64,000 nucleotides of DNA, taken from the NCBI GenBank assembly GCA_024650005.2, contig CP122380.1, positions 800,001 through 864,000 on the forward strand, written 5' to 3'. This stretch comes from Candidatus Bathyarchaeum tardum. Its GTDB lineage: Archaea > Thermoproteota > Bathyarchaeia > Bathyarchaeales > Bathyarchaeaceae. Under the pieces are notes generated by a model that was not told the origin of the DNA, did not search any database, and saw only the letters and a list, made by a program, of their open reading frames with translations. A program made the translations under genes and the position numbers. Below, in pieces: positions 14,396-41,091 of this stretch (the stretch's first letter is position 1; every line of letters begins with the position of its first letter).

Positions 14396-14404
14396 TTTTT
14401 GCTG

Positions 14405-14675: not shown

Positions 14676-14894
14676 CTATTCTATTAGGTTTAGAATTTCT
14701 TCTTTTGTTAAGTCTGCTTCGGATATGATTGTCAGCAGTAGTCCTGTTTTTATTTCTCTGTGTTTTGGAACTGGAACTATGGTTTCGTTTTTGATTAGAA
14801 TTAAGTGGCTTCCTTTTTGTCGGGCAACTTGAAAACCTGCTTTGGCTAGGGCTTTTACTACTTTACGCCAAGAGAGCAGTGGGAGTTTCGACAA
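14676..14894 (-). CDS. hicA: HicA family toxin (copy 1)
   Basis: LAKAGFQVARQKGSHLIL..VPVPKHREIKTGLL; one residue different from 24659-24877. Confidence 0.9.
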   Translation of the reverse strand: MSKLPLLSWRKVVKALAKAGFQVARQKGSHLILIKNETIVPVPKHREIKTGLLLTIISEADLTKEEILNLIE

Positions 14895-14995
14895 TGACCT
14901 CAGCCCGTTCTCCTTTATGGCCGTGGCTCAAAAGTTCCGCTTTTACTTCTAAGTATCCTTCTATGGCTTCTTTGATGTTTTTTAGAGCTTCTTGT
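14863..14995 (-). pseudogene. 5'-truncated hicB
   Basis: Matches the 3' part of hicB 24846-24978 almost exactly, then switches to the array repeat. Confidence 0.9.
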
Positions 14996-15004
14996 TATGT
15001 TTTT

Positions 15005-15135
15005 GTTGTTGTGCATTTGAAAATGATTGTTTGAACAACAGTATCTTTGATTGTTGGGGGTTAAGCTGGTTTTTAGTTAACGTTAAGGTTTTGTTGTTGG
15101 GGAGGGGGGTCAACAACAACATTTGTGTTTGAAGG
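15005..15135 (+). repeat. Array repeat element (IR1 plus G-loop IR3)
   Basis: GTTGTTGT..TTTGAACAAC, then TTGTTGTTG-GGGAGGGGGGT-CAACAACAAC-ATTTGTGTTTGAAGG. Confidence 0.88.
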
Positions 15136-15197
15136 AAAATTTCTAGTAAGGTAAACAGTTATTGGGGTTTGTTGATTTTTCTAAGTGGAGCACATAA

Positions 15198-16139
15198 ATG
15201 TTGTCTGTTGATGGCACAGTTTTGGTTACTGGGGGTGCAGGTTTCATAGGCAGCCATATTGTCGATCGGTTGCTTAAAGATGGGGTTAAAGTACGGGTTG
15301 TTGATGATCTTTCTACTGGGGATAAATCAAATCTTAGTCAGCATAAAAATAACCCTGATTTTGAGTTCGTCCAAGGAGATATCCGGGATTTTGGTGTTGT
15401 GCAAAAGGCTGTAAAAGGTGTTGATGCCGTAGTTCATGAAGCAGCCCTTGTAAGTGTTATTCAATCTGTTGGGGATCCGTTGTTTTCTAACAGTATTAAT
15501 GTTGTAGGTTCTCTTAATTTGCTTAAAGCCAGTGCAGAAGAAAAGGTGCATCGGTTTGTTTTTGCGTCTTCTTGTGCAGTCTATGGGGCTTGTGAAGATT
15601 TGCCTCTTACCGAAGAGTCTAGTGTAAAGCCTCTTTCTCCGTATGCAGTGGATAAGTTAGCTATGGAAAATTATGCTCGGGTTTTTAATGAGGTCAGTGA
15701 TTTGGAAACGGTTGGTTTGCGGTATTTCAATGTGTATGGACCACGGCAAAAATGTGGTCCGTACTGTGGCGTGATTTCTGTTTTTTTTGATAGTTTCTTG
15801 AGAAATAAGTCTCCTGTTATTTTTGGTGATGGGGAGCAGACCCGTGATTTTGTTAATGTGTCCGATGTTGTTGAAGCTAATTTGTGTGCTTTAACAAGAG
15901 TTCAAGCTGCTGGGCAGGTGTTCAATGTGTGCACTGGGAAAGCAACCACAGTGAACAAGGTTTTAGCTGCTGTTGGGGAAATTGCAGGTAAATCGGAAAT
16001 TGAAGCTGTTTATAAACAGTCTCGAGCAGGAGATATCAAACATAGTTATGGGGATAATAGTAAAGCAAAACGTGGATTAGGTTTTGAAGCGAAGGTTGAT
16101 TTAAAAACCGGTTTATCTGAGTTGTTTTCGGTAGGCTAA
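15198..16139 (+). CDS. NAD-dependent epimerase/dehydratase (GalE/WbpP-like SDR), intact copy
   Basis: [48 protein letters not shown]. Confidence 0.93.
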   Translation: MLSVDGTVLVTGGAGFIGSHIVDRLLKDGVKVRVVDDLSTGDKSNLSQHKNNPDFEFVQGDIRDFGVVQKAVKGVDAVVHEAALVSVIQSVGDPLFSNSINVVGSLNLLKASAEEKVHRFVFASSCAVYGACEDLPLTEESSVKPLSPYAVDKLAMENYARVFNEVSDLETVGLRYFNVYGPRQKCGPYCGVISVFFDSFLRNKSPVIFGDGEQTRDFVNVSDVVEANLCALTRVQAAGQVFNVCTGKATTVNKVLAAVGEIAGKSEIEAVYKQSRAGDIKHSYGDNSKAKRGLGFEAKVDLKTGLSELFSVG

Positions 16140-16261
16140 ATTTTTTTGTAGGTTATTATGAACGGTAGAAAGGTTCTAATTGTTTTTTGTAGAATGAATG
16201 TTTTATAGCGCGTTTGTGTGGATTTTTATAGGAAACAGTTGAGTGGGGAGAACCAGGGTTT

Positions 16262-17827
16262 ATGAATAAAATTGTTGTTTTGGATACGTCTGTGATTATT
16301 GATCGGAAAGTTGTTGAAATTATCGAGGCTGAAAAGCCTGAGCAGTTGATAATACCTTATGTGGTGTTGGATGAATTGCAGTCTCAAGCTTCAAAAGGAA
16401 GGGATGAAGGCTACATCGGTTTAGAGCATCTCAAAGTGGTTCGCAAGATTTGTAAGGATCAGCAAATCGAGTTAAGTTTTCAAGGTGAACGTCCAACTTT
16501 GGATGATATAAAGTTGGCCGGCAGCGGACGGCTTGATGCTCTTATTCGGGATGTTTCCAGGAAAAATCAGGGTGTTTTGTTTACTTCGGATTATGTGCAG
16601 TCGTTAGTTGGTGAAGCAGAGGGAATTAAAACCCATTATGTGCCTAAAAAGAGAAAGAAGAGGGCAATGAGTTTTAAGCGTTTTTTCACGCCGGATACCA
16701 TGTCTATTCATTTAAAGCAAGGAGCATCTCCCCTGGCTAAACGGGGTGGTCCGGGCAGTTTTAATCTTGTTAAAATTCGGCTCAAAGCCCTTTCTGAAAA
16801 GGAGTTGAAATTGATGATCAGTCAAATAATGGACGTTGCACGGCGGGAAGAAAAAATTTTTATTGAAATTGACGAGCCTGGGGCTACAGTTATTCAAATG
16901 GGGGAATACCGTATAGCCTTGGCTAAGCCTCCTTTTTCGGATAAGTTAGAAATTACCGTGGTAAGGCCCCTAGTTAAGCTTCGGTTGCAGGATTACCGTC
17001 TTTCCAGTAAATTGATGAATCGGTTAAAGTCCCGAGCCGAAGGAGTGTTAATTGCAGGTCCTCCCGGTTCTGGGAAAACAACTTTTGTTAGTAGTTTAGC
17101 AGATTTTTATTCCAGTCAAGGAAAAATAACCAAAACGTTAGAGTCGCCCCGTGATTTGCAGGTTTGTCCCGAGATTACCCAGTATACTCCCCTGAATGGG
17201 GATTTTGCTAAAACAGCTAGCCTTTTGTTGTTAGTACGTCCTGATTATACGATTTTTGATGAGTTACGGGAAAATTCTACCTTTACTGTTTTTGCGGACA
17301 TGAGGTTAGCCGGAGTTGGCATGATCGGGGTTGTGCATGCTGCTGGGGCAGTTGATGCTGTTAAACGGTTCATATCCCGTGTGGAGTTAGGCATGATTCC
17401 TTCAGTAATAGATACCGTCATATTCATTAAATCTGGAAAAATTGAAAAAATTTATGATTTGTCTTTAACCGTGAAAGTCCCCACCGGGATGTTTGAAGCA
17501 GATTTGGCTCGTCCCCTAGTAGAGGTTAAAGATTTTGAAACTGGAAAGTTGGAATATGAGATTTATACTTTTGGCAAAGAGAATGTTGTTGTTCCAATTA
17601 AAGAAGAGGAGAAAAAAGTTTCTGCTGTTCAGGATTTGGCGTTGCAAAGAATTACTCAAAGTATACAAAAGTACGATAAAGGCGCCCAAATAGAGTTAAC
17701 CGGAAAAAACAGGGCTTTAATTAAAGTTGATAAAAAAGTTATTCCAAGAATCATCGGCAAAAATGGCAAAAACATTTCTAAAATTGAAAAAAATTTGGGT
17801 ATCCAAATTGACATAGAGCCAAAATAA
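16262..17827 (+). CDS. PIN-domain ATPase with C-terminal KH domain (PINc/VapC ATPase, PINA-like)
   Basis: PIN VLDTSVIID, Walker A GPPGSGKT, RPDYTIFDE, KH IIGKNGKNISKIEKNLGIQIDI. Confidence 0.92.
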   Translation: MNKIVVLDTSVIIDRKVVEIIEAEKPEQLIIPYVVLDELQSQASKGRDEGYIGLEHLKVVRKICKDQQIELSFQGERPTLDDIKLAGSGRLDALIRDVSRKNQGVLFTSDYVQSLVGEAEGIKTHYVPKKRKKRAMSFKRFFTPDTMSIHLKQGASPLAKRGGPGSFNLVKIRLKALSEKELKLMISQIMDVARREEKIFIEIDEPGATVIQMGEYRIALAKPPFSDKLEITVVRPLVKLRLQDYRLSSKLMNRLKSRAEGVLIAGPPGSGKTTFVSSLADFYSSQGKITKTLESPRDLQVCPEITQYTPLNGDFAKTASLLLLVRPDYTIFDELRENSTFTVFADMRLAGVGMIGVVHAAGAVDAVKRFISRVELGMIPSVIDTVIFIKSGKIEKIYDLSLTVKVPTGMFEADLARPLVEVKDFETGKLEYEIYTFGKENVVVPIKEEEKKVSAVQDLALQRITQSIQKYDKGAQIELTGKNRALIKVDKKVIPRIIGKNGKNISKIEKNLGIQIDIEPK

Positions 17828-17863
17828 TATTTTTTTGATTTCATATTATTGGTTTTTTGTGGA

Positions 17864-17962
17864 TTATCCATGTATCGGGTCTATAACTTGCATTGTGAGT
17901 TTGTTTGCTAGGCGCTTGAAGACGTCGTCATGGGAGATGGTTTGTTAATGTTATATGTGTAG
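17864..17962 (-). pseudogene. VapC/PIN 3' remnant
   Basis: Reads SHDDVFKRLANKLTMQVIDPIHG*; homologous to about 28330-28395. Confidence 0.65.
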
Positions 17963-18007
17963 TTTGTTTTTTGGCTGGGACCGGTGATTGTTGGTTTGGG
18001 TGTGTTT

Positions 18008-18034
18008 AAGTAATACTTGTTATAGGTATTACTT
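18008..18034. promoter_or_regulatory. Inverted repeat, candidate AbrB-VapC operator
   Basis: AAGTAATAC-N9-GTATTACTT just before ATG 18044; conserved at 36820-36846. Confidence 0.65.
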
Positions 18035-18043
18035 GTGTTAAGT

Positions 18044-18271
18044 ATGACTGAAGTTGCGGTTACGAAAAAGGGGCAAGTTACAATACCTGTGGAGCTAAGA
18101 AGGAAGTTTGGCATAGAAGAGAGTTCAAAAGTGGAAATAGTAGAGGAAGAGGGAAAAATTGTGATCAGAAAGTGTTCCAGCATTTTTGATTTAGCAGGCA
18201 GTGGTGCAGGTAAAGCTGAAGTCAAAGAGTTAAAAAGGGCTTTAGATCAGATGAGGCAAGAAGATGCCTGA
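18044..18271 (+). CDS. AbrB/MazE/SpoVT-family antitoxin (copy 1)
   Basis: VTKKGQVTIPVELRRKFGI. Confidence 0.92.
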   Translation: MTEVAVTKKGQVTIPVELRRKFGIEESSKVEIVEEEGKIVIRKCSSIFDLAGSGAGKAEVKELKRALDQMRQEDA

Positions 18272-18662
18272 AAGTTGCTTGTATGATACTCGTTTTTTTG
18301 TTGAATATTTTTATTCAAATGACGTAGAATTTCGCAGCAAGCTCAAAAAAGATCTTAAAGACGTAAAAGAGCGTTTGGTTTCTGCTTTGGTAGTTCATGA
18401 AATTCATAAGATCAGTCTAGAAAGACAAGGGAAACAAGTTGCCTTCTTAAGGAGTAACATCATTTGCAGGGATTTTAAAGTTGTAGAGGTGGATTTTGTA
18501 ATCGCCCTAAAAAGTGCAGAATTAAGAAGCAAGCACAGGATACCCTTAGCCGATAGTGTAATTGCAGCCTCTGCCCAAGTTCACAGATGCACTCTGGTTT
18601 CAGACGATCCTCATTTCAAAAAAATAAAAAATGTAAAAACAAAATGGTATAGCATCCTCTGA
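18264..18662 (+). CDS. vapC: VapC/PIN toxin (copy 1)
   Basis: LYDTRFF, VVHEI, LADSVIAASA, LVSDDPHF. Confidence 0.92.
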   Translation: MPESCLYDTRFFVEYFYSNDVEFRSKLKKDLKDVKERLVSALVVHEIHKISLERQGKQVAFLRSNIICRDFKVVEVDFVIALKSAELRSKHRIPLADSVIAASAQVHRCTLVSDDPHFKKIKNVKTKWYSIL

Positions 18663-18674
18663 TTGTCTAGAAAC

Positions 18675-18869
18675 GTTGTTATAACGGCAACAACATTTTG
18701 GAAAGAGCAAAAAAGTAGTCGTCTTTTTGGTATACAGTTACTGGACGACTACTACTGCCTTAAAGAATGGGTCACAAGATGTTTTACTTGAACATGATTT
18801 TGCATAATATGCTAGTTTTGTTGTTGTTGGGGGGTAGGGGGGGTCAACAACAACATTTGTGTTTGAAGG
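18675..18869 (+). repeat. Array repeat element, near full length
   Basis: CAACAACATTTTG 18688-18700; AGTAGTCGTC 18714-18723 / GACGACTACT 18744-18753; GTTGTTGTTG 18820-18829 / CAACAACAAC 18845-18854. Confidence 0.95.
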
Positions 18870-18871
18870 TA

Positions 18872-19065
18872 CCATAAGCAGTTTTGGGATTTGCCCTTAT
18901 CTGCTCAAAGCCTGTGCAGTTTCAAATGTGAAACGGTTTGTTTTTTCTTCGTGTGCAGTTTATGGGGCTTATGAAACAGTGCGTATTAACGAAGGGTCTT
19001 GTGTAAAGCCTCTTTCGCCATATGGTGGATAAGTTAATTCGTTGGAAATTATGTTCGGGTTTTTA
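18872..19065 (+). pseudogene. Internal fragment of the NAD-dependent epimerase
   Basis: CTGCTCAAAGCCTGTGCAG..GTGAAACGGTTTG..TGTGCAGTTTATGGGGCT..GTAAAGCCTCTTTCGCCATATG matches about 15520-15690 and 40394-40450. Confidence 0.85.
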
Positions 19066-21704: not shown

Positions 21705-22030
21705 ACATTTTTCCCTGAAATAACAAAGGAATATGCCATTTATATGCTTTCATCCAAGTTTACAGTTACATAACTAAAAGATACGAGTTAGAGTTTAATT
21801 TTTTAGTAGTTTTTTTGTCCAAAACTATCTGTTTTTTGTTTTGTAAGGTTCTTCAGAGTTCCTGTTTACGATTGACAAATAGTTGTATCATGAGTATGAT
21901 ACTCTTGTTTCAACTATCTGTAGGTGACGCCATCGGATCCTAAAAAAAGGTTATTCTATCAAATGGTTGTTGCACAGAACAATGATGTTTCAGGCATGAT
22001 CTAACGTTTGTAGAATTTTTTGTTAAGAAT

Positions 22031-22075
22031 ATTCTGTCTTGTTGTTTAAGTTAAAAAATGTTTGAACAACCACAT
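22031..22075 (+). repeat. Array repeat element, partial IR1
   Basis: GTTGTTTAAGTTAAAAAATGTTTGAACAAC directly before the duplicated MNT-HEPN block. Confidence 0.7.
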
Positions 22076-22183
22076 GTAGTTAGAGTTTGTAGGCGTTGTA
22101 GAGTTTTGTATCTATTTCTTTTTGGGGTGATTGATGGGTGTTGATGGCATCTTTTAAAAAGGGCTAGAGTAGTTAGTTTATTT

Positions 22184-22486
22184 GTGGGCAGCATGAAGTC
22201 AATTGATGAAATAAAAGGTGTTTTGGTTGAACATAAAAGGGAGCTAAGAGAAAGATTTCATGTAAAAGAGATTGGTGTTTTTGGTTCTTTTGTGAGAAAA
22301 GAACAAAAAAAGGGAAGTGATGTTGATGTGTTGGTTGATTTTTTTGAGACCATAGATTTGTTTACGTTTGTTGAACTTGAGAATTATTTAAGTGAGCTTT
22401 TAGGGGTTAAAGTTGATCTAGTTATGAAGGGAGCTCTTAAGCCTCGGTTGGAGGAGAGAATTTTAAGTGAGGCTGTTTATGTGTGA
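22184..22486 (+). CDS. Minimal nucleotidyltransferase (MNT) antitoxin (copy 1)
   Basis: GVFGSFVR..SDVDVLVDF..LLGVKVDLV. Confidence 0.93.
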   Translation: MGSMKSIDEIKGVLVEHKRELRERFHVKEIGVFGSFVRKEQKKGSDVDVLVDFFETIDLFTFVELENYLSELLGVKVDLVMKGALKPRLEERILSEAVYV

Positions 22487-22824
22487 GAGATTTTCGTGTC
22501 TACCTTGAAGATATGGTTGAAGCCATTAATTGTATAGAGGAGTACACGCGGGGGATGAGTTATGAAGCATTTGTTAAGGATAGAAAAACCGTAGATGCTG
22601 TAGTTAGAAATTTTGAAATCATTGGTGAAGCAGCTAAAAACGTTCCAAATGAGGTAAGAAAAATTTACTCCAACTTGCCTTGGAAGGAAATGTCAGGAAT
22701 GAGAGATAAACTGATCCATGCATATTTTGGAGTTAAATTAGATGTTTTATGGAAAACAATTAAAGAACGCTTAATTGTGGTAAAATTATTAGTTGAAGAA
22801 GCTCTGGTCGAATTGGAACAATAA
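22483..22824 (+). CDS. HEPN/DUF86 (HepT-like) toxin (copy 1)
   Basis: DAVVRNFEIIGEA; Rx4H motif RDKLIHAYF. Confidence 0.93.
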   Translation: MRDFRVYLEDMVEAINCIEEYTRGMSYEAFVKDRKTVDAVVRNFEIIGEAAKNVPNEVRKIYSNLPWKEMSGMRDKLIHAYFGVKLDVLWKTIKERLIVVKLLVEEALVELEQ

Positions 22825-22867
22825 AGACTGAACGGACAGTTTCTATTCGAATTCTGTTTTGTGTAAA

Positions 22868-22990
22868 CAAAAATTCTGTTTTCTTTTTGTTGTCTGAGTT
22901 GAAAAATGTGTGAACAACAACATTTTGTAATTAGTGTAGAAGTTGTTGTTTTTTGCTCAGGTAATTTACAACTACTACTGGTTCAAAGAG
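22868..22990 (+). repeat. Array repeat element (IR1 plus IR2, GTT type)
   Basis: CAACAACATTTTG 22915-22927; AGTTGTTGT..CAGGTAATTT..ACAACTACT. Confidence 0.9.
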
Positions 22991-23104
22991 TGTCAAACTT
23001 CAGAAAAAACATTCTTGTAGTTAACTAATTAATTTATGAAAGTTGGTTTTTTCTGGTTTTGATTTTTTATGGATTTTTGGTGTTAGAAATTGTGAGGCGT
23101 ATTT

Positions 23105-23512
23105 TTATTTTGTGGATTTTGTGATGTCGTTCAGTCTTAAAGCTTTGGTATTGGATGCGATCTTTTTTGTTAGTTGCAAATCTTCGGTTATAAGTGTTAG
23201 TTCTTTTGCTTTGGCATGGTAAGTGTATGAGGCGTCATAGAATGTGATTTTCAGTTTTGTTGCGGTTTCTAGTATTTCTTCTTCGGTGCAGTTTATTTGT
23301 GTGATTTCCATGAGGTTTAGTGTTTGCTTGATTATTTTTGCTAGTTTTTTAATTTCTTGATCTGTAGCGTTGGCGTGTAAGGAATAATTTTTCCATAGGA
23401 TGTTTCCCAGTTCGTACCTTGCCAGTTCTATTGTGTGGTTTCCAATTAGAAAGTCGATTTTGTTTTCTTTTATGGCGTTAAATATGGCAGATGAGTCGAA
23501 TAGGTATTTCAT
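23105..23512 (-). CDS. vapC: VapC/PIN toxin (second family, copy 1)
   Basis: YLFDSSAI, YELGN, ITFYDASY, LITED. Confidence 0.92.
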   Translation of the reverse strand: MKYLFDSSAIFNAIKENKIDFLIGNHTIELARYELGNILWKNYSLHANATDQEIKKLAKIIKQTLNLMEITQINCTEEEILETATKLKITFYDASYTYHAKAKELTLITEDLQLTKKIASNTKALRLNDITKSTK

Positions 23513-23739
23513 TTACGGTTTCTGTCCTCTCTTATGCCCTTCACTATGTTTTCTATGTTTACCCTGTTGAGTGTTGGTTTTAGTTTTTGTATGTCTTCTT
23601 TGAGTTTTTCTGCTTCTCTTCGTCTTATTTCGTCTTCTATGGCTTTTCGTAATAGTTTGGATGGTTTAATGTTTAGTTGTTTTATTTTTTCTTTGAGTTC
23701 TTGGGGAATTTTTGTGGATACGGTTACAGACTTGTTCAA
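23509..23739 (-). CDS. RHH/VapB-type antitoxin (copy 1)
   Basis: VTVSTKIPQELKEKIKQLNIKPSKLLRKAIEDEI; overlaps vapC. Confidence 0.85.
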   Translation of the reverse strand: MNKSVTVSTKIPQELKEKIKQLNIKPSKLLRKAIEDEIRRREAEKLKEDIQKLKPTLNRVNIENIVKGIREDRNRK

Positions 23740-24039
23740 ATTCTCACCACTAGGTAATATAAATTAGAAGAATAAAAAGTTTACAATATTTTCTTACCAG
23801 CTATTACGCCTTTTTTTGTCAAAATACAATCATTAAACAAAAAACTCTTTGGCTTTGATTCTGCCCACTCCATTCCATCCCAGTTTTCATACATAGCTAA
23901 TTTTGGATGCAAATGTGGTTATGTTCTTTAAATCTAGCTTAGCTTCAAGGACCAAGTTTGTTGTCGCGTGAGGAATCGACAATAATAGAGCTTTCTTTTC
24001 TCGATTTTTGTTGTTTATGAATTGATGATGTTATTGTTT

Positions 24040-24197
24040 GGTCAGAGTTTTATGTTTTCAGTTTGACTGCAGAGGGTTTTTTGTGAATAAGGTTTTAGAT
24101 TTCAAGCATGGTTTAAGGATAGTTTATGAGAATAGAAAAAGACTATTTACTGGTCATCACTTTTTATCCGGTGAGGCGAGACAGATATGGCATATAA
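24040..24197. pseudogene. Fused remnants: 3' end of the 38635-39015 gene (minus) and 3' end of a DUF4258-like gene (plus)
   Basis: 24040-24090 matches 38625-38675; then HGLRIVYENRK, frameshift, LLVITFYPVRRDRYGI* overlapping the DUF2283 start. Confidence 0.7.
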
Positions 24198-24399
24198 AAT
24201 TAGGTACGATGATGAGTCAGATGTGCTCACCTTAGTCGTAGTTGACAAGGGTAAACTGTCTTACGCTGAAGAAGTAGGGGACATAGTAGTTCATTTTGAT
24301 GAAAAAGGAAACCCCTTATTCATGGACATCCTTAAAGCCAGCAAGATCGTCCCGCTAATGGTTCAAAGTTTAGCTAAAAAAGAAGTTATAACAGCATAA
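24187..24399 (+). CDS. DUF2283-family protein (predicted antitoxin)
   Basis: KIRYDDESDVLTL...DIVVHFDEKGNPLFMDILKASK. Confidence 0.85.
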   Translation: MAYKIRYDDESDVLTLVVVDKGKLSYAEEVGDIVVHFDEKGNPLFMDILKASKIVPLMVQSLAKKEVITA

Positions 24400-24460
24400 C
24401 AGAACTTTTGAATAACAACAAATGTAGTTGTAGTTGGTTCAGCAACTGTCGCTACCAGGG

Positions 24461-24594
24461 CAACAACTGTTTTGGAAAGAGTGTAGAAGTAGTCATCTTT
24501 TTGGTACCCAGAATGGACGACTACTACTACCTTAAGGAATGGGTCAAAACACGTTTGTTGCTTGAACCTGATTATGTAAAAAATGCTGGTTTTG
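24461..24594 (+). repeat. Array repeat element (IR2 plus spacer, IR3 absent)
   Basis: CAACAACTGTTTTGGAAAGAG..AGTAGTCATC..GACGACTACT..TTGAACCTGATTATGTAAAAAATGCTGGTTTTG. Confidence 0.9.
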
Positions 24595-24658
24595 GTGGGT
24601 TTTGGATTTTTTAGATCCGAATTAGCATTTGTTTAATTGTTATAGACAACTTTTTTTG

Positions 24659-24877
24659 TTATTCTATTAGGTTTAGAATTTCTTCTTTTGTTAAGTCAGC
24701 TTCGGATATTATTGCCAACAGTAGTCCTGTTTTTATTTCTCTGTGTTTTGGAACGGGAACTATGGTTTCGTTTTTGATTAGAATTAAGTGGCTTCCTTTT
24801 TGTCGGGCAACTTGAAAACCTGCTTTGGCTAGGGCTTTTACTACTTTACGCCAAGAGAGCAGTGGGAGTTTCGACAA
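24659..24877 (-). CDS. hicA: HicA family toxin (copy 2)
   Basis: RQKGSH motif; downstream of intact hicB. Confidence 0.92.
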   Translation of the reverse strand: MSKLPLLSWRKVVKALAKAGFQVARQKGSHLILIKNETIVPVPKHREIKTGLLLAIISEADLTKEEILNLIE

Positions 24878-25079
24878 TGACCTCAGCCCGTTCTCCTTTA
24901 TGGCCGTGGCTCAAAAGTTCCGCTTTTACTTCTAAGTATCCTTCTATGGCTTCTTTGATGTTTTTTAGAGCTTCTTGCTTTGTTTCACCCTGAGTGGCTA
25001 CTGGAAGTTCGACACATTTTACCACAAAGCCGCCTTCTTCTGCAGGTTCTAACAAGACTGTGAAAGTACGGGCATCCAT
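24846..25079 (-). CDS. hicB: HicB family antitoxin
   Basis: EPAEEGGFVVKCVELPVATQGETKQEALKNIKEAIEGYLE. Confidence 0.92.
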   Translation of the reverse strand: MDARTFTVLLEPAEEGGFVVKCVELPVATQGETKQEALKNIKEAIEGYLEVKAELLSHGHKGERAEVIVETPTALLA

Positions 25080-30957: not shown

Positions 30958-31350
30958 TTGTCGGATGCACTTGGTTTAAATGATTTAAAGATAAAACCTG
31001 CAAAACTTCCAAAAATAAAACCAATTAGCAGTATCATTTTGAAATTTGATTCTGAAGAAAAAAGAGTTGCAATTCCAGCAAGTACTAAAAAAGAAGTTTA
31101 CTCACGCGCAAAAGGTAAATGTGAAAGTTGTGGAACAAAAATGAAAATGACAGGTGATGGAGGAGATTTTCATCACACTAGAAAACCCAGTGTTAAATCA
31201 AGGCCGTCTTCAATACAGTTTTTGTGTGCTGTTTGCCACCGTAGATATGGACATGCAAAACGTACAAAAATAGTCAAAAATGCATTTGGAACTGTTATTG
31301 AAAAGAAAGTAACCATAACCCGAAGAAAAGTTGGTAAACATAAACAATAG
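30958..31350 (+). CDS. HNH-like zinc-binding endonuclease
   Basis: IPASTKKEVYSRAKGKCESCG...DFHH...IQFLCAVCHRRYGH. Confidence 0.75.
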   Translation: MSDALGLNDLKIKPAKLPKIKPISSIILKFDSEEKRVAIPASTKKEVYSRAKGKCESCGTKMKMTGDGGDFHHTRKPSVKSRPSSIQFLCAVCHRRYGHAKRTKIVKNAFGTVIEKKVTITRRKVGKHKQ

Positions 31351-31639: not shown

Positions 31640-33100
31640 TTAGTTTAGTTGGTAAATTGTGATTCTTTGGTAGTTTTGTATTGGTTTCCATTGGTTTGGG
31701 ATTTGTAGTTGGTGTAGGGTTTGGTTTTGGTTCCACCATATAAAGTATAAGTTGTTGTAGCCTTGGTTTTTTGTGTAGTTTGCAGCATTTTCTAAATTAA
31801 AGTCAAACAGGTATGCTTGATGGTTTGTGTTTAGGTATAGCATTGCCCAGTTGTCAAATAGGTCGTGAATTAGCACTGCTGAGTTGTTGTTCATGTTGTT
31901 GTTTAGCCAGTTGAAAGCTTGTTGGGTGCCCTTAATGTCCTGCAATGGGATTGAAGTTGTTTGCATAGTTGAAGGGACATATTTTGTAGTTCCGCCCCAG
32001 TTGATAAATCCTTTATTGTTGTCCGATAACGGCCATGCCATAAATATTGTTGCCATGGTCATGGAAGCAAGAATTAATAGTATGCAGATTTTTTTGGCAT
32101 GTTTGAATTGTTTAATAAAGTTTAGTAATTTGTTTTTGTTTTGGTTTTTTACGATTTTGTGCAGTCCATTAGTAGCATAAAATGAGAATGGAAAAATTAG
32201 AAGCAGCATCCATCTTGCCCATAAAAATACTGAAAAAAATGGGGCAACTAAGCAGCCTAATCCGGTGATTAGTAATAGGATTGTCCAAATAGTAAACGGC
32301 CTATCTTTAAAGTATCCAATTATGATCAGGGGCATCATTAAGCCATACAATAAAAGAAACAAAGAAGCTACATTAGACGCCAACTGGAAGTATGAAGAGT
32401 ACGTTTCTATCGGGGTTTGAACCGTTAAGTAATCTGTCAAAAAAAACAGTCCCCCCGGATGAGCCCAAACGCTATCGTCTATCCGGACAATATTGGATTC
32501 CGTAGGGATCGCAAACGGTGAAATCCAAAAAAAGTTGCCCATAAACAGCAATATCGCAGGAAGAATCGCCAAAAAAAGTTTGTACGGAATTTTTTGTTTT
32601 TTTAACGCACTAACAATAACCCAGCCAAACACAATAAAGAACAAAGAAGCCATCGCAAGTTCATGACCCCAAACCGTAAAAATGGCCAGTACCGATAAAA
32701 CGGTTAATTCTTTGAAAGACGCATCATTTTTCAGCAACGGAAAAGCAAACAGCAAAACCATTACGCCCAGCATGTTTCGGTAAAATTGCCAACTAACCGC
32801 TAAACTTGCAAGTTGTAAAGAAAAAATTAACGAAACTAATAGGCACTTTTTTGGGTTCCATTTTAGTCGTTTCCAAGCAACAAAATATACTCCCGCACAG
32901 GTTCCAGCATACAATAACGGAGCAAATATTTTCAGGATAATAAACGGATCAACCTTAGTAATATTAGTTAAAGCAACTAAAATTCCGTAAACCAGCCAAG
33001 AATTAACTAAATCACTGCCAACAGTAAAGGCAACCCCCGAATTCATCCGAGAAGCATAATAAATTGTATCCAAACCAACAGGAAACGGAAAACTTAACAA
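31640..33100 (-). CDS. Multi-pass membrane protein (GT-C-like), paralog of 55286-56827
   Basis: Shared DTIYYASRMNSG, SWQFYRN, WAHPGGLFF, KYVPSTMQ; homologous N-terminus continues in frame to about 33170 with no ATG. Confidence 0.8.
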   Translation of the reverse strand: MLSFPFPVGLDTIYYASRMNSGVAFTVGSDLVNSWLVYGILVALTNITKVDPFIILKIFAPLLYAGTCAGVYFVAWKRLKWNPKKCLLVSLIFSLQLASLAVSWQFYRNMLGVMVLLFAFPLLKNDASFKELTVLSVLAIFTVWGHELAMASLFFIVFGWVIVSALKKQKIPYKLFLAILPAILLFMGNFFWISPFAIPTESNIVRIDDSVWAHPGGLFFLTDYLTVQTPIETYSSYFQLASNVASLFLLLYGLMMPLIIIGYFKDRPFTIWTILLLITGLGCLVAPFFSVFLWARWMLLLIFPFSFYATNGLHKIVKNQNKNKLLNFIKQFKHAKKICILLILASMTMATIFMAWPLSDNNKGFINWGGTTKYVPSTMQTTSIPLQDIKGTQQAFNWLNNNMNNNSAVLIHDLFDNWAMLYLNTNHQAYLFDFNLENAANYTKNQGYNNLYFIWWNQNQTLHQLQIPNQWKPIQNYQRITIYQLN

Positions 33101-34970: not shown

Positions 34971-35047
34971 CTGTTAGAGAAAAGATTGTTAGAAGGGAAA
35001 TACCTGATTATTTGTTGCTGGTAGTTTTCAAAAGCAGGTACAAAAAC

Positions 35048-35300
35048 ATGTCAGTTGGTTTTTCTAAAATTTTGGTTACAGGTGGTGCAGGTTTCATTGG
35101 AAGTCACATTTTTGATAAGTTGCTCGAGGAAGGAATCAAAGTAAAGGTAATTGATAATCTTTCAACTGGAGATATAACAAACCTTAGTCAGCACGCAAAC
35201 AACCCTGATTTTGAGTTCATCCAAGGAGAAATCTGAGATTTTGATTTTGTCCAAAAAGCTGTCAAAGGGGTTGATGCACTAGTCCATGATGCAGGCCGGG
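35048..35300 (+). pseudogene. 5' fragment of NAD-dependent epimerase
   Basis: [13 protein letters not shown]; in-frame TGA ending 35236; homology ends near 35295. Confidence 0.88.
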
Positions 35301-35364
35301 GTAAAATGTTGTTTAAGAAATTGTTTAATAATTGTTAGTTGTCAGGTTTTTGTGGGGTCAACCA

Positions 35365-35577
35365 ATGACAGTGACTGTTAATGAAGAAGAGATAAAGTTA
35401 GTGCTTGACAGGTTGGACACAGTTAAGCTTGAGCTTTTAAGGCTCAGAGCATTGCTTTTGCCTGAAGAAGAAGAAGAAGCAACTGATGAAGACAAAAAAG
35501 AGATTCAAGAAGCAAAAAATGAAATTGTAAATGGTTCAAAAGTTAATCTTGAAGATTTAATTAAAGAACTGTGCTGA
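35365..35577 (+). CDS. Orphan antitoxin, paralog of 9802-10008 (relE lost)
   Basis: LVLDRLDTVKLELLRLRALLLPEE shared; no relE follows. Confidence 0.8.
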   Translation: MTVTVNEEEIKLVLDRLDTVKLELLRLRALLLPEEEEEATDEDKKEIQEAKNEIVNGSKVNLEDLIKELC

Positions 35578-35724
35578 TTTTTTTGTTTCAGGCTCTTGGG
35601 CGTTAATGTTGAAATTTTGGTCAGAGTTTGTGGGCGTTGTAGAGTTTTGTATCTATTTCTTTTTGGGGTGATTGATGGGTGTTGATGGCATCTTTTAAAA
35701 AGGGCTAGAGTAGTTAGTTTATTT

Positions 35725-36027
35725 GTGGGCAGCATGAAGTCAATTGATGAAATAAAAGGTGTTTTGGTTGAACATAAAAGGGAGCTAAGAGAAAGATTTC
35801 ATGTAAAAGAGATTGGTGTTTTTGGTTCTTTTGTGAGAAAAGAACAAAAAAAGGGAAGTGATGTTGATGTGTTGGTTGATTTTTTTGAGACCATAGATTT
35901 GTTTACGTTTGTTGAACTTGAGAATTATTTAAGTGAGCTTTTAGGGGTTAAAGTTGATCTAGTTATGAAGGGAGCTCTTAAGCCTCGGTTGGAGGAGAGA
36001 ATTTTAAGTGAGGCTGTTTATGTGTGA
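35725..36027 (+). CDS. MNT antitoxin (copy 2)
   Basis: Protein identical to 22184-22486. Confidence 0.93.
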   Translation: MGSMKSIDEIKGVLVEHKRELRERFHVKEIGVFGSFVRKEQKKGSDVDVLVDFFETIDLFTFVELENYLSELLGVKVDLVMKGALKPRLEERILSEAVYV

Positions 36028-36365
36028 GAGATTTTCGTGTCTACCTTGAAGATATGGTTGAAGCCATTAATTGTATAGAGGAGTACACGCGGGGGATGAG
36101 TTATGAAGCATTTGTTAAGGATAGAAAAACCGTAGATGCTGTAGTTAGAAATTTTGAAATCATTGGTGAAGCAGCTAAAAACGTTCCAAATGAGGTAAGA
36201 AAAATTTACTCCAACTTGCCTTGGAAGGAAATGTCAGGAATGAGAGATAAACTGATCCATGCATATTTTGGAGTTAAATTAGATGTTTTATGGAAAACAA
36301 TTAAAGAACGCTTAATTGTGGTAAAATTATTAGTTGAAGAAGCTCTGGTCGAATTGGAACAATAA
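36024..36365 (+). CDS. HEPN/DUF86 toxin (copy 2)
   Basis: Protein identical to 22483-22824. Confidence 0.93.
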   Translation: MRDFRVYLEDMVEAINCIEEYTRGMSYEAFVKDRKTVDAVVRNFEIIGEAAKNVPNEVRKIYSNLPWKEMSGMRDKLIHAYFGVKLDVLWKTIKERLIVVKLLVEEALVELEQ

Positions 36366-36408
36366 AGACTGAACGGACAGTTTCTATTCGAATTCTGTTT
36401 TGTGTAAA

Positions 36409-36772
36409 CAAAAATTCTGTTTTCTTTTTGTTGTCTGAATTGAAAAATGTGTACACAACAACATCTTGGAAATAATGCAGAAGTAGTTGTTTTTTTGCTG
36501 CAGGTAATTAACAACAACTACTGTTTAAAAAGGGAATCAAAACACGTTTAGTAATTGAACAGGATTTAAAAAAATGTTATTTTTGTTGTTGTTAGAGTTG
36601 AAAAAACTTTTGAACAGCAATATTTTGTAGAGTACAGAAGTAGTCGTCTTTTCTGTACCAGTTACTGGACGACTACTACTTTATAGAATATATTAAAACA
36701 TGTTTTTTGTTTGTACATGATTACACAAAAAATGTAGATTTGTTGTTATCAGAAGGGTAGGGGGTCAACAAT
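36409..36772 (+). repeat. Two tandem array repeat units
   Basis: AGTAGTTGTT 36482-36491 / AACAACTACT 36513-36522; IR1 near 36585-36620; AGTAGTCGTC 36639-36648 / GACGACTACT 36668-36677; degenerate G-loop IR3 near 36740-36771; IR2 copies 157 bp apart. Confidence 0.92.
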
Positions 36773-36855
36773 GATTGTTTTTTGGCGGGTCTGGGTGATT
36801 GTTGGTTTGGGTTATGTTTAAGTAATACTTGTTGTAGGTATTACTTGTGTTAAGT

Positions 36856-37083
36856 ATGACTGAAGTTGCGGTTACGAAAAAGGGGCAAGTTACAATACCT
36901 GTGGAGCTAAGAAGGAAGTTTGGCATAGAAGAGAGTTCAAAAGTGGAAATAGTAGAGGAAGAGGGAAAAATTGTGATCAGAAAGTGTTCCAGCATTTTTG
37001 ATTTAGCAGGCAGTGGTGCAGGTAAAGCTGAAGTCAAAGAGTTAAAAAGGGCTTTAGATCAGATGAGGCAAGAAGATGACTGA
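36856..37083 (+). CDS. AbrB-family antitoxin (copy 2)
   Basis: Identical to 18044-18271 except the last residue. Confidence 0.92.
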   Translation: MTEVAVTKKGQVTIPVELRRKFGIEESSKVEIVEEEGKIVIRKCSSIFDLAGSGAGKAEVKELKRALDQMRQEDD

Positions 37084-37474
37084 AAGTTGCTTGTATGATA
37101 CTCGTTTTTTTGTTGAATATTTTTATTCTGCTGATGTAGAATTTCTCAACAAGCTCAAAAAAGATCTTAAAGACGTGAAAGAGCGTTTGGTTTCTGCTTT
37201 GGTTGTTCATGAAATTCATAAGATCAATCTAGAAAAACAAGGGAAACAAGTTGCTGTCTTAAGGAGTAACATCATTTGCAGGGATTTTAAAGTTGTAGAA
37301 GTGGATTTTGTAATCGCCCTAAAAAGTGCAGAATTAAGAAGCAAGCACAGAATACCCTTAGCAGATAGTGTAATTGCAGCTTCTGCCCAAGTTCACAGAT
37401 GCACTTTAGTTTCAGATGATCCTCATTTCAAAAAAATAAAAAATTTAAAAACAAAATGGTATAGCAGCCTCTGA
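37076..37474 (+). CDS. vapC: VapC/PIN toxin (copy 2)
   Basis: Close paralog of 18264-18662. Confidence 0.92.
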   Translation: MTESCLYDTRFFVEYFYSADVEFLNKLKKDLKDVKERLVSALVVHEIHKINLEKQGKQVAVLRSNIICRDFKVVEVDFVIALKSAELRSKHRIPLADSVIAASAQVHRCTLVSDDPHFKKIKNLKTKWYSSL

Positions 37475-37486
37475 TTGCCTAGAAAC

Positions 37487-37575
37487 GTTGTTATAAAGGC
37501 AACAACATTTTGTAATTAGTATAGAAGTAGTTGTTTTTTGTGTACAGGCAATTCACAACTACTACTGGTTTAAAC
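37487..37575 (+). repeat. Array repeat element, chimeric copy
   Basis: Left of CAACAACATTTTG (37500-37512) matches 18663-18700; right matches 22928 onward. Confidence 0.9.
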
Positions 37576-37690
37576 AGTGTCAAACTTCAGAAAAGCATTC
37601 TTTTGTTAACTAATTAATTTATGAAAGTTGATTTTTTCTGGTTTTGATTTTTTATGGATTTTTGGTGTTGTAAATTGTGATGCTGTATTT

Positions 37691-38098
37691 TTATTTTGTG
37701 GATTTAGTGATGTCGTTCAGTTTTAAAGCTTTGGTGTATGATGCGATTTTTTTTGTTAGCCGCATATCTTCGGTTATAAGTGTTAGTTCTTTTGTTTTGG
37801 CATGGTAAGTGTATGAGGCGTCGTAGAATGTGATTTTCAGTTTTGTTGCGGTTTCTAGTATTTCTTCTTCGGTGCAGTTTATTTGTGTGATTTCCATGAG
37901 GTTTAGTGTTTGCTTGATTATTTTTGCTAGTTTTTTAATTTCTTGATCTGTAGCGTTGGCGTGTAAGGAATAATTTTTCCATAGGATGTTTCCCAGTTCG
38001 TACCTTGCCAGTTCTATTGTGTGGTTTCCAATTAGAAAGTCGATTTTGTTTTCTTTTATGGCGTTAAATATGGCAGATGAGTCGAATAGGTATTTCAT
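37691..38098 (-). CDS. vapC: VapC/PIN toxin (second family, copy 2)
   Basis: Near-identical to 23105-23512. Confidence 0.92.
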   Translation of the reverse strand: MKYLFDSSAIFNAIKENKIDFLIGNHTIELARYELGNILWKNYSLHANATDQEIKKLAKIIKQTLNLMEITQINCTEEEILETATKLKITFYDASYTYHAKTKELTLITEDMRLTKKIASYTKALKLNDITKSTK

Positions 38099-38325
38099 TT
38101 ACGGTTTCTGTCCTCTCTTATGCCCTTCACTATGTTTTCTATGTTTACCCTGTTGAGTGTTGGTTTTAGTTTTTGTATGTCTTCTTTGAGTTTTTCTGCT
38201 TCTCTTCGTCTTATTTCGTCTTCTATGGCTTTTCGTAATAGTTTGGATGGTTTAATGTTTAGTTGTTTTATTTTTTCTTTGAGTTCTTGGGGGATTTTTG
38301 TGGAGACGGTTACAGACTTGTTCAA
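38095..38325 (-). CDS. RHH/VapB-type antitoxin (copy 2)
   Basis: Same protein as 23509-23739 from TTG 38325. Confidence 0.85.
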   Translation of the reverse strand: MNKSVTVSTKIPQELKEKIKQLNIKPSKLLRKAIEDEIRRREAEKLKEDIQKLKPTLNRVNIENIVKGIREDRNRK

Positions 38326-38634
38326 ATTATCACCAATAGGTAATACAAAATAGCAGAATAATAAGTTTACCATATTTTCTTACCTTCCATTACGCTTTTT
38401 TTCATCAAAATACAGTCATTAAAAAGTAAGCTGCCCGGCTTTGATTCTACCTAGTCGATTCAATCCCAGTTTTCATAGATAGCTGATTTTGGATGCAAAT
38501 CTGGTTATGTTTTTTAACCCTAGCTTAGCTTCAAGAGCCAAGTTCTTGTCATGCGAGGAATCGACAATAATAGAGCTTTCTTTTCGCGATTTTTGTTGTT
38601 TATGAATTGATGCTGTTATTGTTTGGCCAGAGTT

Positions 38635-39015
38635 TTATGTTTTCAGTTTAACTGCAGAGGGTTTTTTGTGGATAACTTGTATGATGTTTAGATGTTCCAG
38701 TAAGGGTACTACGTAGCTGCCTTGGGATGATCGTTTGTTGGTTGCTGAGTTTTCGCGCAGGTATCTTTCCAAAGTTCCTTTGCGTATTTTTTTTAGGGCA
38801 TAATGTCGGGCTCCGATTTTGACCCAGCCTTTGTTTTTAAGAAAATTTGGTACTCCGTTCAAGGATTCTTTTGTAACTGTGATTTTTGTTTTTTTTACCA
38901 TGAAAATGATTTGTTCAGGTTGTTTGTGTAAAAGTTTGAACGGTTTATATCTAACCGGAGTATACAAAATTAGTCCTTCAGGAGCTTCTGTTAGTATTTT
39001 ATCAAATACTGACAA
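38635..39015 (-). CDS. Hypothetical basic protein
   Basis: 126-aa ORF; only its 3' end survives at 24040-24090. Confidence 0.65.
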   Translation of the reverse strand: MSVFDKILTEAPEGLILYTPVRYKPFKLLHKQPEQIIFMVKKTKITVTKESLNGVPNFLKNKGWVKIGARHYALKKIRKGTLERYLRENSATNKRSSQGSYVVPLLEHLNIIQVIHKKPSAVKLKT

Positions 39016-40073: not shown

Positions 40074-41091
40074 ATGTCAATTGGTTTTGGTAAAGTTTTG
40101 GTTACCGGCGGTGCAGGTTTTATTGGAAGTCACATAGTTGACAGGTTAATTGAGGAAGGGGTTAAAGTAAGGGTCTTGGATGACCTTTCAAAGGGATGTA
40201 AATCAAACCTTAGTCAACATGAAAACAACCCGGATTTTGACGTCATCAAAGGAGGCGTCAGAAATCTTGATGCTGTAAAAAAGCTGTTAAAGACATCAAT
40301 GCGGTAATCCATGAAGCAGAACTGGTAAGCATCATCAAATCAATTGAAGACCCATTGCTTTCAAACAGCATAAACGTTGTAGGAACCCTGAATCTGCTCA
40401 AAGCATGTGCAGAATCAAAAGTGAAACGGTTTGTCTTTGCTTCTTCATGTGCAGTGTACGGTAACACAAACGATTTACTTATCAAAGAAGATGTTTTACA
40501 TAAGCCTCTTTCACCCTATGCTACAGACAAATTAGCCGCAGAAAACTATGTCAAAGTTTTTAATGATATGACAGAACTTGAAACGGTAACTTTACGTTAC
40601 TTCAACGTTTATGACCCCAAACAAAGATATGGACAATACAGTGGAATAATTTCGATTTTTATTAACAGTTTGTTGGAAAATAAATCACCTGTAATTTATG
40701 GAGACGGACAACAAACAAGAGATTTTTGTTAATATAAAAGACGTAGCTGAAGCAAATATAAGTACATTATCAAAAACGAAGTATTTCAGGTGAGGTTTTC
40801 AATGTTTGTACCGGCGAAGCGTTATTCATTAACAAAATTTCTAGAACCATCCAAAGTATTTTGGAAAAAACGTCTATTGAACCGGTTTACAAAAAACGTA
40901 GACAAGGAGACATTAAACACAGTTTTGGAGATAATTCTAAAAATAAAGAATTGTTGCGGTTTGAACCTGAAGTTAAGATAGAAACCGGACTAAACAAACT
41001 CATAAAACTGAGGAAGTTAAAATCAGGAAAGTTGGTTTTTTTAGAAGAAAGGTTGAATCTCCAACAGATTAAACAATTCATGCTTTTATAA
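40074..41091 (+). pseudogene. Full-length but multiply frameshifted NAD-dependent epimerase
   Basis: ORFs 40074-40307, 40355-40732 and 40861-41091 are consecutive pieces matching 15198-16139. Confidence 0.9.

Follow-up and report, generated by a model that had tools for sequence, protein, structure and literature searches.

An integron-like, non-integron cassette array of toxin-antitoxin modules and hairpin repeats in Candidatus Bathyarchaeum tardum

To our knowledge, no cassette platform other than the integron is well understood, and the evidence for integrons in Archaea is confined to computational calls of attC sites and of the integrase IntI. The R''/R' boxes of attC follow the consensus RYYYAAC / GTTRRRY, and IntI is required for an integron but not for a CALIN (cluster of attC sites lacking integron-integrase). 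A report on archaeal integrons (Ghaly et al. 2022, PMC9668308) describes them as mostly CALINs, including some from Thermoproteota, with toxin-antitoxin genes as the commonest annotated cargo (10.5%). The locus discussed here lies in a window of 64,000 nucleotides (positions 800,001 to 864,000, forward strand, of contig CP122380.1, assembly GCA_024650005.2) of the archaeon Candidatus Bathyarchaeum tardum. A 26-kb row of toxin-antitoxin modules and one family of hairpin repeats forms an integron-like array of cassettes that is not an integron. Like sedentary chromosomal integrons of the Vibrio type and CALINs, it covers dozens of kb and has direct structured repeats that are alike within the genome, cargo rich in toxin-antitoxin genes, paralogous cassettes, "empty" units, a junction at a fixed core by the foot of a stem, and an integrase possibly absent in cis. 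Unlike them, it has no IntI, its core reads CAACAAC-ATTTTG, its repeat measures 125-210 nt with three hairpins mostly 5' of the downstream module, its genes lie on both strands, and the repeat is homologous to a segment of a viral gene. Its novelty is this joining of integron architecture and cargo with an unrelated core, no integron enzyme in the closed genome and virus-related repeats; a literature search returned no paper pairing Bathyarchaeia with integron in title or abstract.

Other systems share some of these traits. Repetitive extragenic palindromes and bacterial interspersed mosaic elements (REP/BIME) with their REP-associated tyrosine transposases (RAYT), and the palindromes derived from IS200/IS605, are imperfect hairpins with a conserved mismatch that occur as solo copies and in clusters, are strand-specific and leave no target duplication; the array resembles them in those hairpin traits but has neither Y1 transposase nor TnpB and carries cargo genes between its hairpins. 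In pac-type phages such as P22 and SPP1 the packaging signal (pac site) lies inside the small-terminase gene, and satellites copy the packaging signals of their helpers. Here too a conserved DNA signal, with copies outside the virus, is found in the gene that immediately precedes a large terminase gene, and a packaging role may be predicted for it; unlike satellites, which carry the signal at one end, the array has its copies between host toxin-antitoxin modules. The pdif (Xer) modules of Acinetobacter plasmids are small, often of toxin-antitoxin type, and have inverted 28-bp sites used in trans by a housekeeping tyrosine recombinase; the present modules are likewise small and bounded by short sites, but here the sites run in direct orientation and are associated with hairpins. 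Where integrative elements accumulate in tandem at a single att site, direct core repeats likewise come to lie between insertions, whereas the modules here are 0.16-6 kb long and lack an integrase, and the core is 13 nt.

The array occupies about 14.4-40 kb of the window. Small modules, toxin-antitoxin and others, lie between direct copies of one composite repeat of about 125-210 nt, whose 11 copies, all on the + strand, serve as module separators, and the cargo genes are found on both strands. The extent of the array and its repeat copies are as follows.

14400-40010, + strand: whole array, with 10 full and 1 truncated copies of Part A of the repeat and cargo that is mostly toxin-antitoxin pairs
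18670, 21153, 22895, 24452, 25145, 26993, 30427, 36437, 36599, 37482 and 39809, + strand: positions of the Part A copies
15054, 18788, 25267, 27120, 28160, 34900 and 39933: copies of Part B

The composite repeat was defined by repeat finding, MAFFT alignment and nhmmer. Part A, of about 125-140 nt, begins with a left arm, in most copies TTGTTGT..GAGTTGAAAAATGTTTGAA, followed by the core CAACAACATTTTG(G), i.e., CAACAAC-ATTTTG(G). About 10 nt separate the core from a conserved, imperfect hairpin 2 (AGAAGTAGTCGTC, a loop with a T-run, GACGACTACTAC, or a GTTGTT/AACAAC variant), the spacers falling at 10-16 nt and at about 25 nt, and Part A then continues with TTTAAAGAATGC..GTTTGTTGGTTGAAC. Pairing in hairpin 2 is kept by compensatory changes (at one pair, CG six times and UA four times). 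The core is also the 3' arm of a weak GTTGTT..CAACAAC hairpin (hairpin 1): 8 of the 11 copies, some of them with arms of unrelated sequence, have a GTTGTT in the left arm that is able to pair with the core's CAACAAC. Part B, which often but not at every junction adds a further hairpin, is strong (GTTGTTGTTG-GGGGGTAGGGGGGGT-CAACAACAAC; z -4 to -6.6), of the type (GTT)3G-G-rich loop-C(AAC)3, and is followed by CAACAACATTTG, a second core-like sequence. Every repeat copy has a T-run of 5-8 and a TTTAAA box. No Rfam family reached its gathering score in the window, and a tRNA scan of the window found none.

An exact search for the motif CAACAACAT[CT]TTG locates it at five window positions (18688, 22915, 27011, 36456 and 37500), always on the + strand. 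The whole genome (hereafter G000; closed, a single contig of 2,152,572 bp, 97.9% complete) holds seven occurrences and none on the - strand; the additional two (937559 and 1437140) have no surrounding repeat and look like chance matches. With up to two mismatches the window contains 30 occurrences, compared to 8.7 expected (sd 3.0), a number that none of 100 shuffles reached. Genome-wide, nhmmer found the 10 full copies and 1 truncated copy of Part A in the window at 18.6-40 kb and, besides these, one partial copy (10330) and a small number of solo copies in other places; these dispersed copies lie on both strands.

Attention had been drawn to the locus by two paralogous stretches, of which one contains an additional 1,044 bp. 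The features concerned are listed here.

36456-36468, + strand: junction core CAACAACATCTTG, left end of the 1,044-bp segment
37500-37512, + strand: junction core CAACAACATTTTG, the first bases beyond the extra segment and the place of the switch from the 18660-type to the 22887-type parent
22915-22927, + strand: junction core of copy 1, where the repeat switches from the 36428-type (left) to the 37472-type (right)
18688-18700, + strand: junction core after the other AbrB-VapC copy
36428-36568, + strand: Part A copy with weak hairpin 1, core, hairpin 2 (GTTGTT type) and TTTAAA box
36587-36775, + strand: Part A with a degenerate Part B, which with the preceding copy makes a 159-bp "empty" unit
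37472-37610, + strand: chimeric repeat, made of the left arm of the AbrB-VapC module and the leader (TAATTAG.., GTTGTT hairpin) of the RHH-PIN module
22887-23025, + strand: chimeric repeat of copy 1
18660-18865, + strand: full repeat (Part A and Part B)

Alignment of 22000-24200 with 35500-38800 by BLASTN gave two colinear blocks. The first pairs 22079-22987 with 35620-36530 (98.1% over 911 columns) and the second 22915-24090 with 37500-38675 (93.6% over 1,179 columns). The original prediction had placed a gain or loss exactly at this motif, with the offset jumping from 13,541 to 14,585, and the alignment reproduced both offsets. The blocks overlap at 22915-22987 alone, within the repeat; since this stretch aligns both to 36456-36530 and to 37500-37574, it is repeated there. 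The extra segment is thus 36456-37499, with CAACAACATYTTG at both borders. As had been proposed, it comprises repeat units, namely the remainder of the repeat at 36428-36568 and the repeat at 36587-36775, and an AbrB-VapC pair with a putative operator: the AbrB/MazE antitoxin and PIN toxin genes (36847-37474, paralogous to 18035-18662) are preceded by the inverted repeat GTAATAC..GTATTAC, a candidate operator, and are followed by the left arm of the repeat at 37472-37610. The 1,044-bp difference is best explained by one module, made up of an empty repeat unit and AbrB-VapC, having been gained or lost. The duplication itself is real and not an assembly artefact, as the summed contig depth in sequencing run X1 is about 182 on the unique flanks and 364-527 on the duplicated blocks, where contigs of the paralogue also fall, as expected from two copies.

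The modules that flank or fill this segment are given below, and their ends define what travels together.

36847-37083, + strand: AbrB/MazE-type antitoxin gene, paralogue of 18035-18271 (Pfam match on the paralogue, E 7e-13)
37076-37474, + strand: VapC-type PIN toxin gene, paralogue of 18264-18662 (PIN match on the paralogue, E 5e-16)
17964-18687, + strand: AbrB-VapC module, other copy
35620-36455, + strand: MNT-HEPN module (NTP_transf_2 plus HepT), copy 2, starting right after the degenerate core ..GAAATTTTGG
22079-22914, + strand: MNT-HEPN module, copy 1, with a degenerate left arm and core before it at 22039-22078
37513-38675, - strand: RHH (CcdA-like)-PIN module, copy 2, with genes at 37691-38098 and 38095-38373, with a degenerate left arm and core at its end (about 38590-38633)
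22928-24090, - strand: RHH-PIN module, copy 1, with genes at 23105-23512 and 23509-23739

In both copies of each of the AbrB-VapC, MNT-HEPN and RHH-PIN modules (2/2 in every case), the left arm goes with the upstream module and the leader with the downstream one. The suggestion that a cassette equals repeat plus cargo therefore describes the anatomy well, as arms and leaders travel with their modules; it does not establish that the exchange was site-specific. The left boundaries of two modules, MNT-HEPN and AbrB-VapC, adjoin cores, or what is left of them. Homology between the two MNT-HEPN copies starts right after a degenerate core (..CAACCACATGTAG before TTAGAG and ..GAAATTTTGG before TCAGAG), and a third context of this module, in run X2, has a loose end reading ..GCTTGAACAAAAACATACAAGT. 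One AbrB-VapC copy begins after Part B (..GGGTCAACAAT, the TCAACAAT of Part B) and the other after a degenerate ..ATGTGTAG. The degenerate cores that abut module boundaries have 4-5 mismatches in 13. A third, partial copy of MNT-HEPN, 85% identical, was observed at about 1545.6-1546.0 kb of G000, 2.5 kb from the remnant of a small helix-turn-helix (HTH; terS-like) gene at 1548.2 kb.

Two repeats are mosaics of others, as determined by three-way alignments in which the copy-1 repeat was treated as a mosaic of those at 36428 and 37472, and the repeat at 37472 as one of those at 18660 and 22887. In both, the informative sites to the left of the core agree without exception with one parent. The other parent is first recognized at a site within the core or directly behind it, and from there on it accounts for most sites; a few right-side sites fit the first parent or neither of the two. 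A T/C difference within the core is, in the first mosaic, already of the right parent. The chimeric nature predicted for the element at 37.5 kb is borne out in this way, its left part being 18660-type and its right part mostly 22887-type. The parents share homology only from the core rightwards, over about 75 nt, so that the switch sits at the extreme left edge of this homology; in the first mosaic a longer identical run further right (17 nt, AGAAGTAGTTGTTTTTT) was not used.

The blocks have unequal ages. The MNT-HEPN paralogues match at 831 of 836 sites (99.4%), with all five differences at the ends, and the RHH-PIN paralogues at 1,090 of 1,159 (94.05%; 69 differences), a tenfold difference in divergence (Fisher p 8e-12); the AbrB-VapC paralogues match at 695 of 723 sites (28 differences). 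This inequality indicates that adjacent modules have separate histories, and a single segmental duplication followed by a deletion fits it poorly. Either the modules moved separately, or gene conversion was active, or both.

Module content also differs between close relatives. The comparison of strains used Logan contigs of runs X1-X4, i.e., assembled sequence, in which stretches of X3 and X4 lacking cover carry no information. A contig of X3, from an independent study, joins 35592 to 38634 with 394 other letters between, and a contig of X2, with about 96% identity and a depth of 454 compared to about 79 for the window-identical contigs, joins 36448 to 38634. Both joints have their right end at the degenerate core before the next module, so that the differences in content fall at repeat positions. 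Neither a circle nor an empty-site junction was seen among the contigs. Another joint, 37539>36659 (+TGGTATA), proved to be the 18.7-kb paralogue.

No recombinase gene was found in the 64-kb window. The genome has 10 PF00589 matches, the nearest about 80 kb and 146 kb away; uninterrupted tyrosine recombinases among them lie, for example, at G000 1217994, 653825, 1467971, 10003 and 944251. Its best match to IntI (TIGR02249) scores 41.6 bits compared to a cutoff of 265. Neither the Y1 HUH transposase (PF01797) nor TnpB (PF07282) has a match in the closed genome, whereas the control searches were positive in 6 and 8 of 14 genomes, respectively. An open reading frame (ORF) of 486 aa at 31640-33100, which has no Pfam match, was considered as a hidden recombinase and rejected, as it has eight transmembrane-like segments.

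A relative of the repeat was found in viral genes. The pattern of hairpin 2 matched 42 loci in genome contigs, 32 of which are labelled Bathyarchaeota, Bathyarchaeia or Bathyarchaeum, compared to a chance expectation, estimated by hand, of about 11 matches. Open frames over the pattern (as in loci L030, L040 and L054) belong to a small gene coding HTH..RLGL-VVV(V)-loop-TTT(T)-..LPSVE.., relatives of which were found by tblastn in 17 of 48 loci searched; in three (L023, L042 and L043) the small HTH gene lies apart from the pattern match. A homologue in the same genome (G000 645813-646226; 137 aa; tblastn E 3e-17) belongs to a resident provirus and carries the Part B palindrome in frame, where it codes 12 residues. 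In all four loci tested (the resident provirus, one metagenome-assembled genome (MAG) and two IMG/VR contigs), the palindrome-bearing HTH gene, of 137-157 aa, overlaps the start of a large terminase gene (Terminase_6N, 3.5e-11; phrog_2, E 4e-34 to 2e-39), and in the three loci scanned for neighbors a tail-like gene lies upstream and/or an ABC-ATPase-like gene downstream. An AlphaFold (AF2) model of the protein starts with three helices that form an HTH, which a disordered linker connects to a helical C-terminal part, and the palindrome-coded residues 50-61 are this linker (pLDDT <50). The 8-bp stem is maintained across 15 small HTH genes: each of its three wobble pairs shows compensatory changes (AU12/UA3, AU10/UA4, CG7/UA5/UG2), and 2 of 120 cells are broken; this covariation means that selection acts on the nucleic acid.

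The six best genome matches of a hidden Markov model (HMM) of the viral region are array hairpins 2 (E 5e-7 to 6e-4), and the homology, which is short (50-70 nt), begins at the core. Judged by sequence, the array hairpins are homologous to the covarying palindrome in the linker of the small HTH gene of Bathyarchaeial head-tailed (pro)viruses. On the basis of gene order and architecture, the small HTH gene of these viruses is a putative small terminase. The palindrome, for its part, is a concrete candidate for their packaging signal (pac site). The PHROG name of the family is "transcriptional regulator, D5-like"; a Foldseek search with the protein gave no match at E <= 0.001, the small terminase of phage G20C standing at rank 13 with E 1.1, which is no evidence, and a profile search of the PDB returned weak matches to HTHs of Myb/GcrA type only. 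The Part B pattern had no match in viral contigs. A single locus from a pattern scan of metagenomes, aimed at homologous arrays, is a chance match, as it has neither a repeat-HMM match nor a BLAST match to the genome.

How the array was assembled can be explained in several ways. The reading that we tentatively favor, at somewhat less than even confidence, is site-specific exchange at the core by a system acting in trans: the left arm would be a property of the upstream module and the leader one of the downstream module, and strand exchange inside the 13-nt core, which sits at the 3' foot of a (GTT)n/(AAC)n hairpin, would join modules, excise them or swap them, through a putative recombinase acting in trans and presumably by way of a circular intermediate. 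In its favor are the location of both parental switches, the left boundaries that adjoin degenerate cores, the uniform orientation of the array copies, the unequal divergence of neighbors, the strain variants, a cargo typical of sedentary integron arrays, the compensatory changes in hairpin 2 and the end of synteny at the M48 peptidase gene. Its close rival, a substantial possibility in our judgment, requires no dedicated machinery. The repeat would be an intergenic insulator (terminator T-run plus TATA-like box), or an element like REP or a miniature inverted-repeat transposable element (MITE), and the mosaic would have been made by homologous or microhomology recombination, duplication, deletion and conversion. 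The original proposal of an exchange inside the right arm of the first inverted repeat is partly supported, as the 1,044-bp difference ends on both sides at the core, the 3' arm of hairpin 1. Several observations weigh against the site-specific reading, and some of them favor the rival. Five of the nine mapped paralogue breakpoints are off the core. The breakpoint 24090/38675 lies about 49 nt beyond a degenerate core, 35590/10023 leaves an orphan antitoxin, 15002/24985 shortens a HicB gene where a left arm begins, the truncation of the repeat at 21153 falls within the loop of hairpin 2 (about 21213), and the 14.5-kb paralogue of 24187-24985 lacks the repeat interior (about 160 nt). The stem of hairpin 1 is weak, at -3 to -8 kcal/mol and with z often above -2. 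Few stretches of the repeat are as well conserved as the core, which is invariant in most copies and forms the longest identical run of the second mosaic, so that exchange by homology or microhomology would favor it too; the two switches at the core were moreover the events that drew attention, which makes any estimate of clustering post hoc. Mismatch-free tracts within the diverged paralogues (22092-22897 and 23238-23706) suggest gene conversion between array copies. No recombinase is encoded nearby, and the array is known from one genome only, the DNA of relatives having been searched. Two joints among the contigs are explained without excision, the second of them probably so: 36495>37545 (+GCT; X1, X2 and X3) is copy 1 aligned to copy 2, and the joint that goes back 826 (36448>35623; X1, depth 192) is, in the simplest reading, the upstream junction of copy 1 and not a circle. 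The T-runs and TTTAAA box of every copy and the solo copies in ordinary intergenic regions would suit an insulator, and direct orientation is kept by unequal crossing-over as well. What speaks against exchange by homology alone is that both switches are one-sided, at the left edge of the 75-nt parental homology, with the 17-nt run of the first mosaic left unused; that the boundary cores are too degenerate for homologous recombination; and that adjacent modules differ tenfold in divergence. If the exchange is directed by an enzyme, the array points to a recombination system as yet unknown in a widespread, hard-to-culture archaeal class, and the assembly of archaeal toxin-antitoxin or defense islands becomes testable; if it is mediated by the repeats only, the array is still a clean case of a dispersed hairpin element that structures a variable island.

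Further explanations, some of them prompted by the viral homology, are all less probable. Hairpins that are copies of a palindrome resembling a packaging signal could be bound, or the DNA beside them cut, by a small or large terminase or a viral recombinase, with the result that modules would be cut and joined, packaged or transduced, or switched on by infection through decoy sites. The excess of Bathyarchaeial loci, the overlap with the large terminase gene, the in-frame palindrome of the resident provirus, the stem covariation, the disordered linker, the top six matches of the viral HMM and a homology that starts at the core are all in line with this; yet terminases cut DNA and do not join it, the homology spans only 50-70 nt, some solo hairpins have no viral gene anywhere near them, and the assignments of small terminase (from gene order and architecture, with PHROG naming a regulator and Foldseek giving no match at E <= 0.001) and of pac site are themselves conjectural, so that we consider a virus-linked origin of the exchange improbable. 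Slightly better, but still unlikely, are the prospects of a cassette platform built on the viral signal, in which modules would carry a copy of the viral palindrome and be cut and joined some 10-20 nt away from it, as an integron analogue with neither IntI nor attC; if true, the mobility of toxin-antitoxin defense modules, their packaging or transduction, or their firing upon infection would be linked to a DNA-recognition protein of a virus. That the array is the remnant of a canonical integron, i.e., a CALIN whose repeats are attC sites of an IntI encoded elsewhere or lost, seems very unlikely. The array repeats do include at least two direct attC-like sites less than 4 kb apart, the arrangement by which CALINs are called (start-to-start distances of Part A are 159-6,009 bp, nine of ten being below 4 kb), the cargo is rich in toxin-antitoxin genes, the core complement begins with GTT, and CALINs are reported from Archaea, Thermoproteota among them (PMC9668308). 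The closed genome, however, has no IntI, and the junction core CAACAAC-ATTTTG (complement CAAAAT-GTTGTTG) departs from the box consensus, the strands GTTGTTG / CAACAAC sharing with GTTRRRY / RYYYAAC only the GTT/AAC triplet. The sole heptamer of that kind, GTTGAAC near the right end of Part A, is away from the junctions, the spacers between core and hairpin 2 (10-16 and about 25 nt) far exceed the central spacer of attC, and it is chiefly on the side of the downstream module that the conserved part is found. Least probable of all, and hardly to be expected, are derivatives of IS200/IS605-type elements that moved as single strands by "peel and paste" (PATE-like), with subterminal hairpins at both ends and insertion 3' of a fixed short target, the right end of the previous element. 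A hairpin does lie about 10 nt inside the left end and another directly before the right end, inspection revealed neither target duplications nor terminal inverted repeats, and orientation is strictly uniform; against this stands the absence of Y1 and TnpB matches from the closed genome in searches whose controls were positive.

The array appears to be specific to its lineage and adjoins the last gene that is syntenic with relatives. Synteny with three genomes of the same genus ends directly after an M48 peptidase gene (13441), and the 18 kb beyond this end in the three genomes share nothing with 13.5-64 kb of the window and show no definable empty site, so that the array is part of a variable island. 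Among 40 relatives, the DNA of Parts A and B matched in two only (G016 and G010), and among 59 other genomes of the family Part A was found in one copy each in G016 and G055 and in none of the others; the regions fetched from G016 contain solo repeat copies only, with neither an array nor cargo in common. A full unit of Part A and Part B was also observed on a contig of 2,553 bp binned as "Clostridiales bacterium" (JAFGAC010000182.1); it is 82% identical to the solo copy at 2099.4 kb of G000, and the contig is probably a misbinned Bathyarchaeial one.

Pfam assigns the paired cargo to AbrB/MazE-PIN (two pairs), MNT-HepT (two), a second HEPN/NTase pair, RHH (CcdA-like)-PIN (two), HicA/HicB, and ParE with a partner, with E values of 7e-13 for MazE_antitoxin, 5e-16 for PIN, 7e-17 for NTP_transf_2, 2e-28 for HepT, 1e-17 for HicA and 8e-7 for ParE. 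Small antitoxin and toxin genes with the domains of these families are adjacent, as in type II toxin-antitoxin systems. Further cargo consists of an extra HicB, DUF2283, a MazE-like protein, an aspartyl-protease-like protein with DUF5678, DUF6577 and DUF6855; besides these, an intact NAD-epimerase gene accompanied by one for PIN-ATPase-KH lies in the array, as do a gene for UDP-GlcNAc 2-epimerase and a multi-pass membrane protein. A second DUF2283 plus HicA/HicB segment, at 14405-15002 (compare 24187-24985), lies upstream of the NAD-epimerase gene and places the start of the array at 14.4 kb or before.

Some observations on the viral loci stand apart from these questions. The provirus-like region (G000:C1:640000-654400; L063) contains a tail-like gene of 805 aa, the 137-aa HTH gene, the large terminase and the ABC-ATPase-like gene, and its tyrosine integrase of 386 aa adjoins a class I tRNA synthetase gene; no 14-mers are common to the integrase region (652.9-654.5 kb) and 600-648 kb, where att sites were sought. 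In the small-HTH remnant at about 1548.3 kb of G000 (L065:4374-4427), the G-rich loop is reverse-complemented (ACCCCCCCTACCCCCC) and the arms are unchanged relative to L063:5942-5995 and L066:4137-4189, as expected from recombination between inverted arms. Three contigs of Bathyarchaeia MAGs (L032, L035 and L062) have at least two palindromes of VVV..TTT type (GAAGTTGTT..AACAACAAC and GAAGTAGTCGTC..GACGACTAC) in tandem within about 100 nt.

Other observations concern the cargo. A small ORF at 30958-31350, placed as cargo right after the repeat at 30427, has no Pfam match and looks by eye like an HNH nuclease from its CxxC..HH..CxxCH spacing. An antitoxin plus RelE/ParE-like pair at 9.8-10.3 kb (9787-10279) is followed by the partial repeat at 10330-10424, and the orphan antitoxin-like gene at 35332-35577 has 82% DNA identity to the first gene of this pair; from 35592 onwards, other sequence takes the place of the toxin in the 35-kb copy. 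The NAD-epimerase gene (15198-16139) recurs as scattered fragments at 18896-19065, 35012-35294 and 40074-40732, each preceded by Part B, and the segment 28160-28394 resembles a copy of 15054-17963 that has lost both genes.

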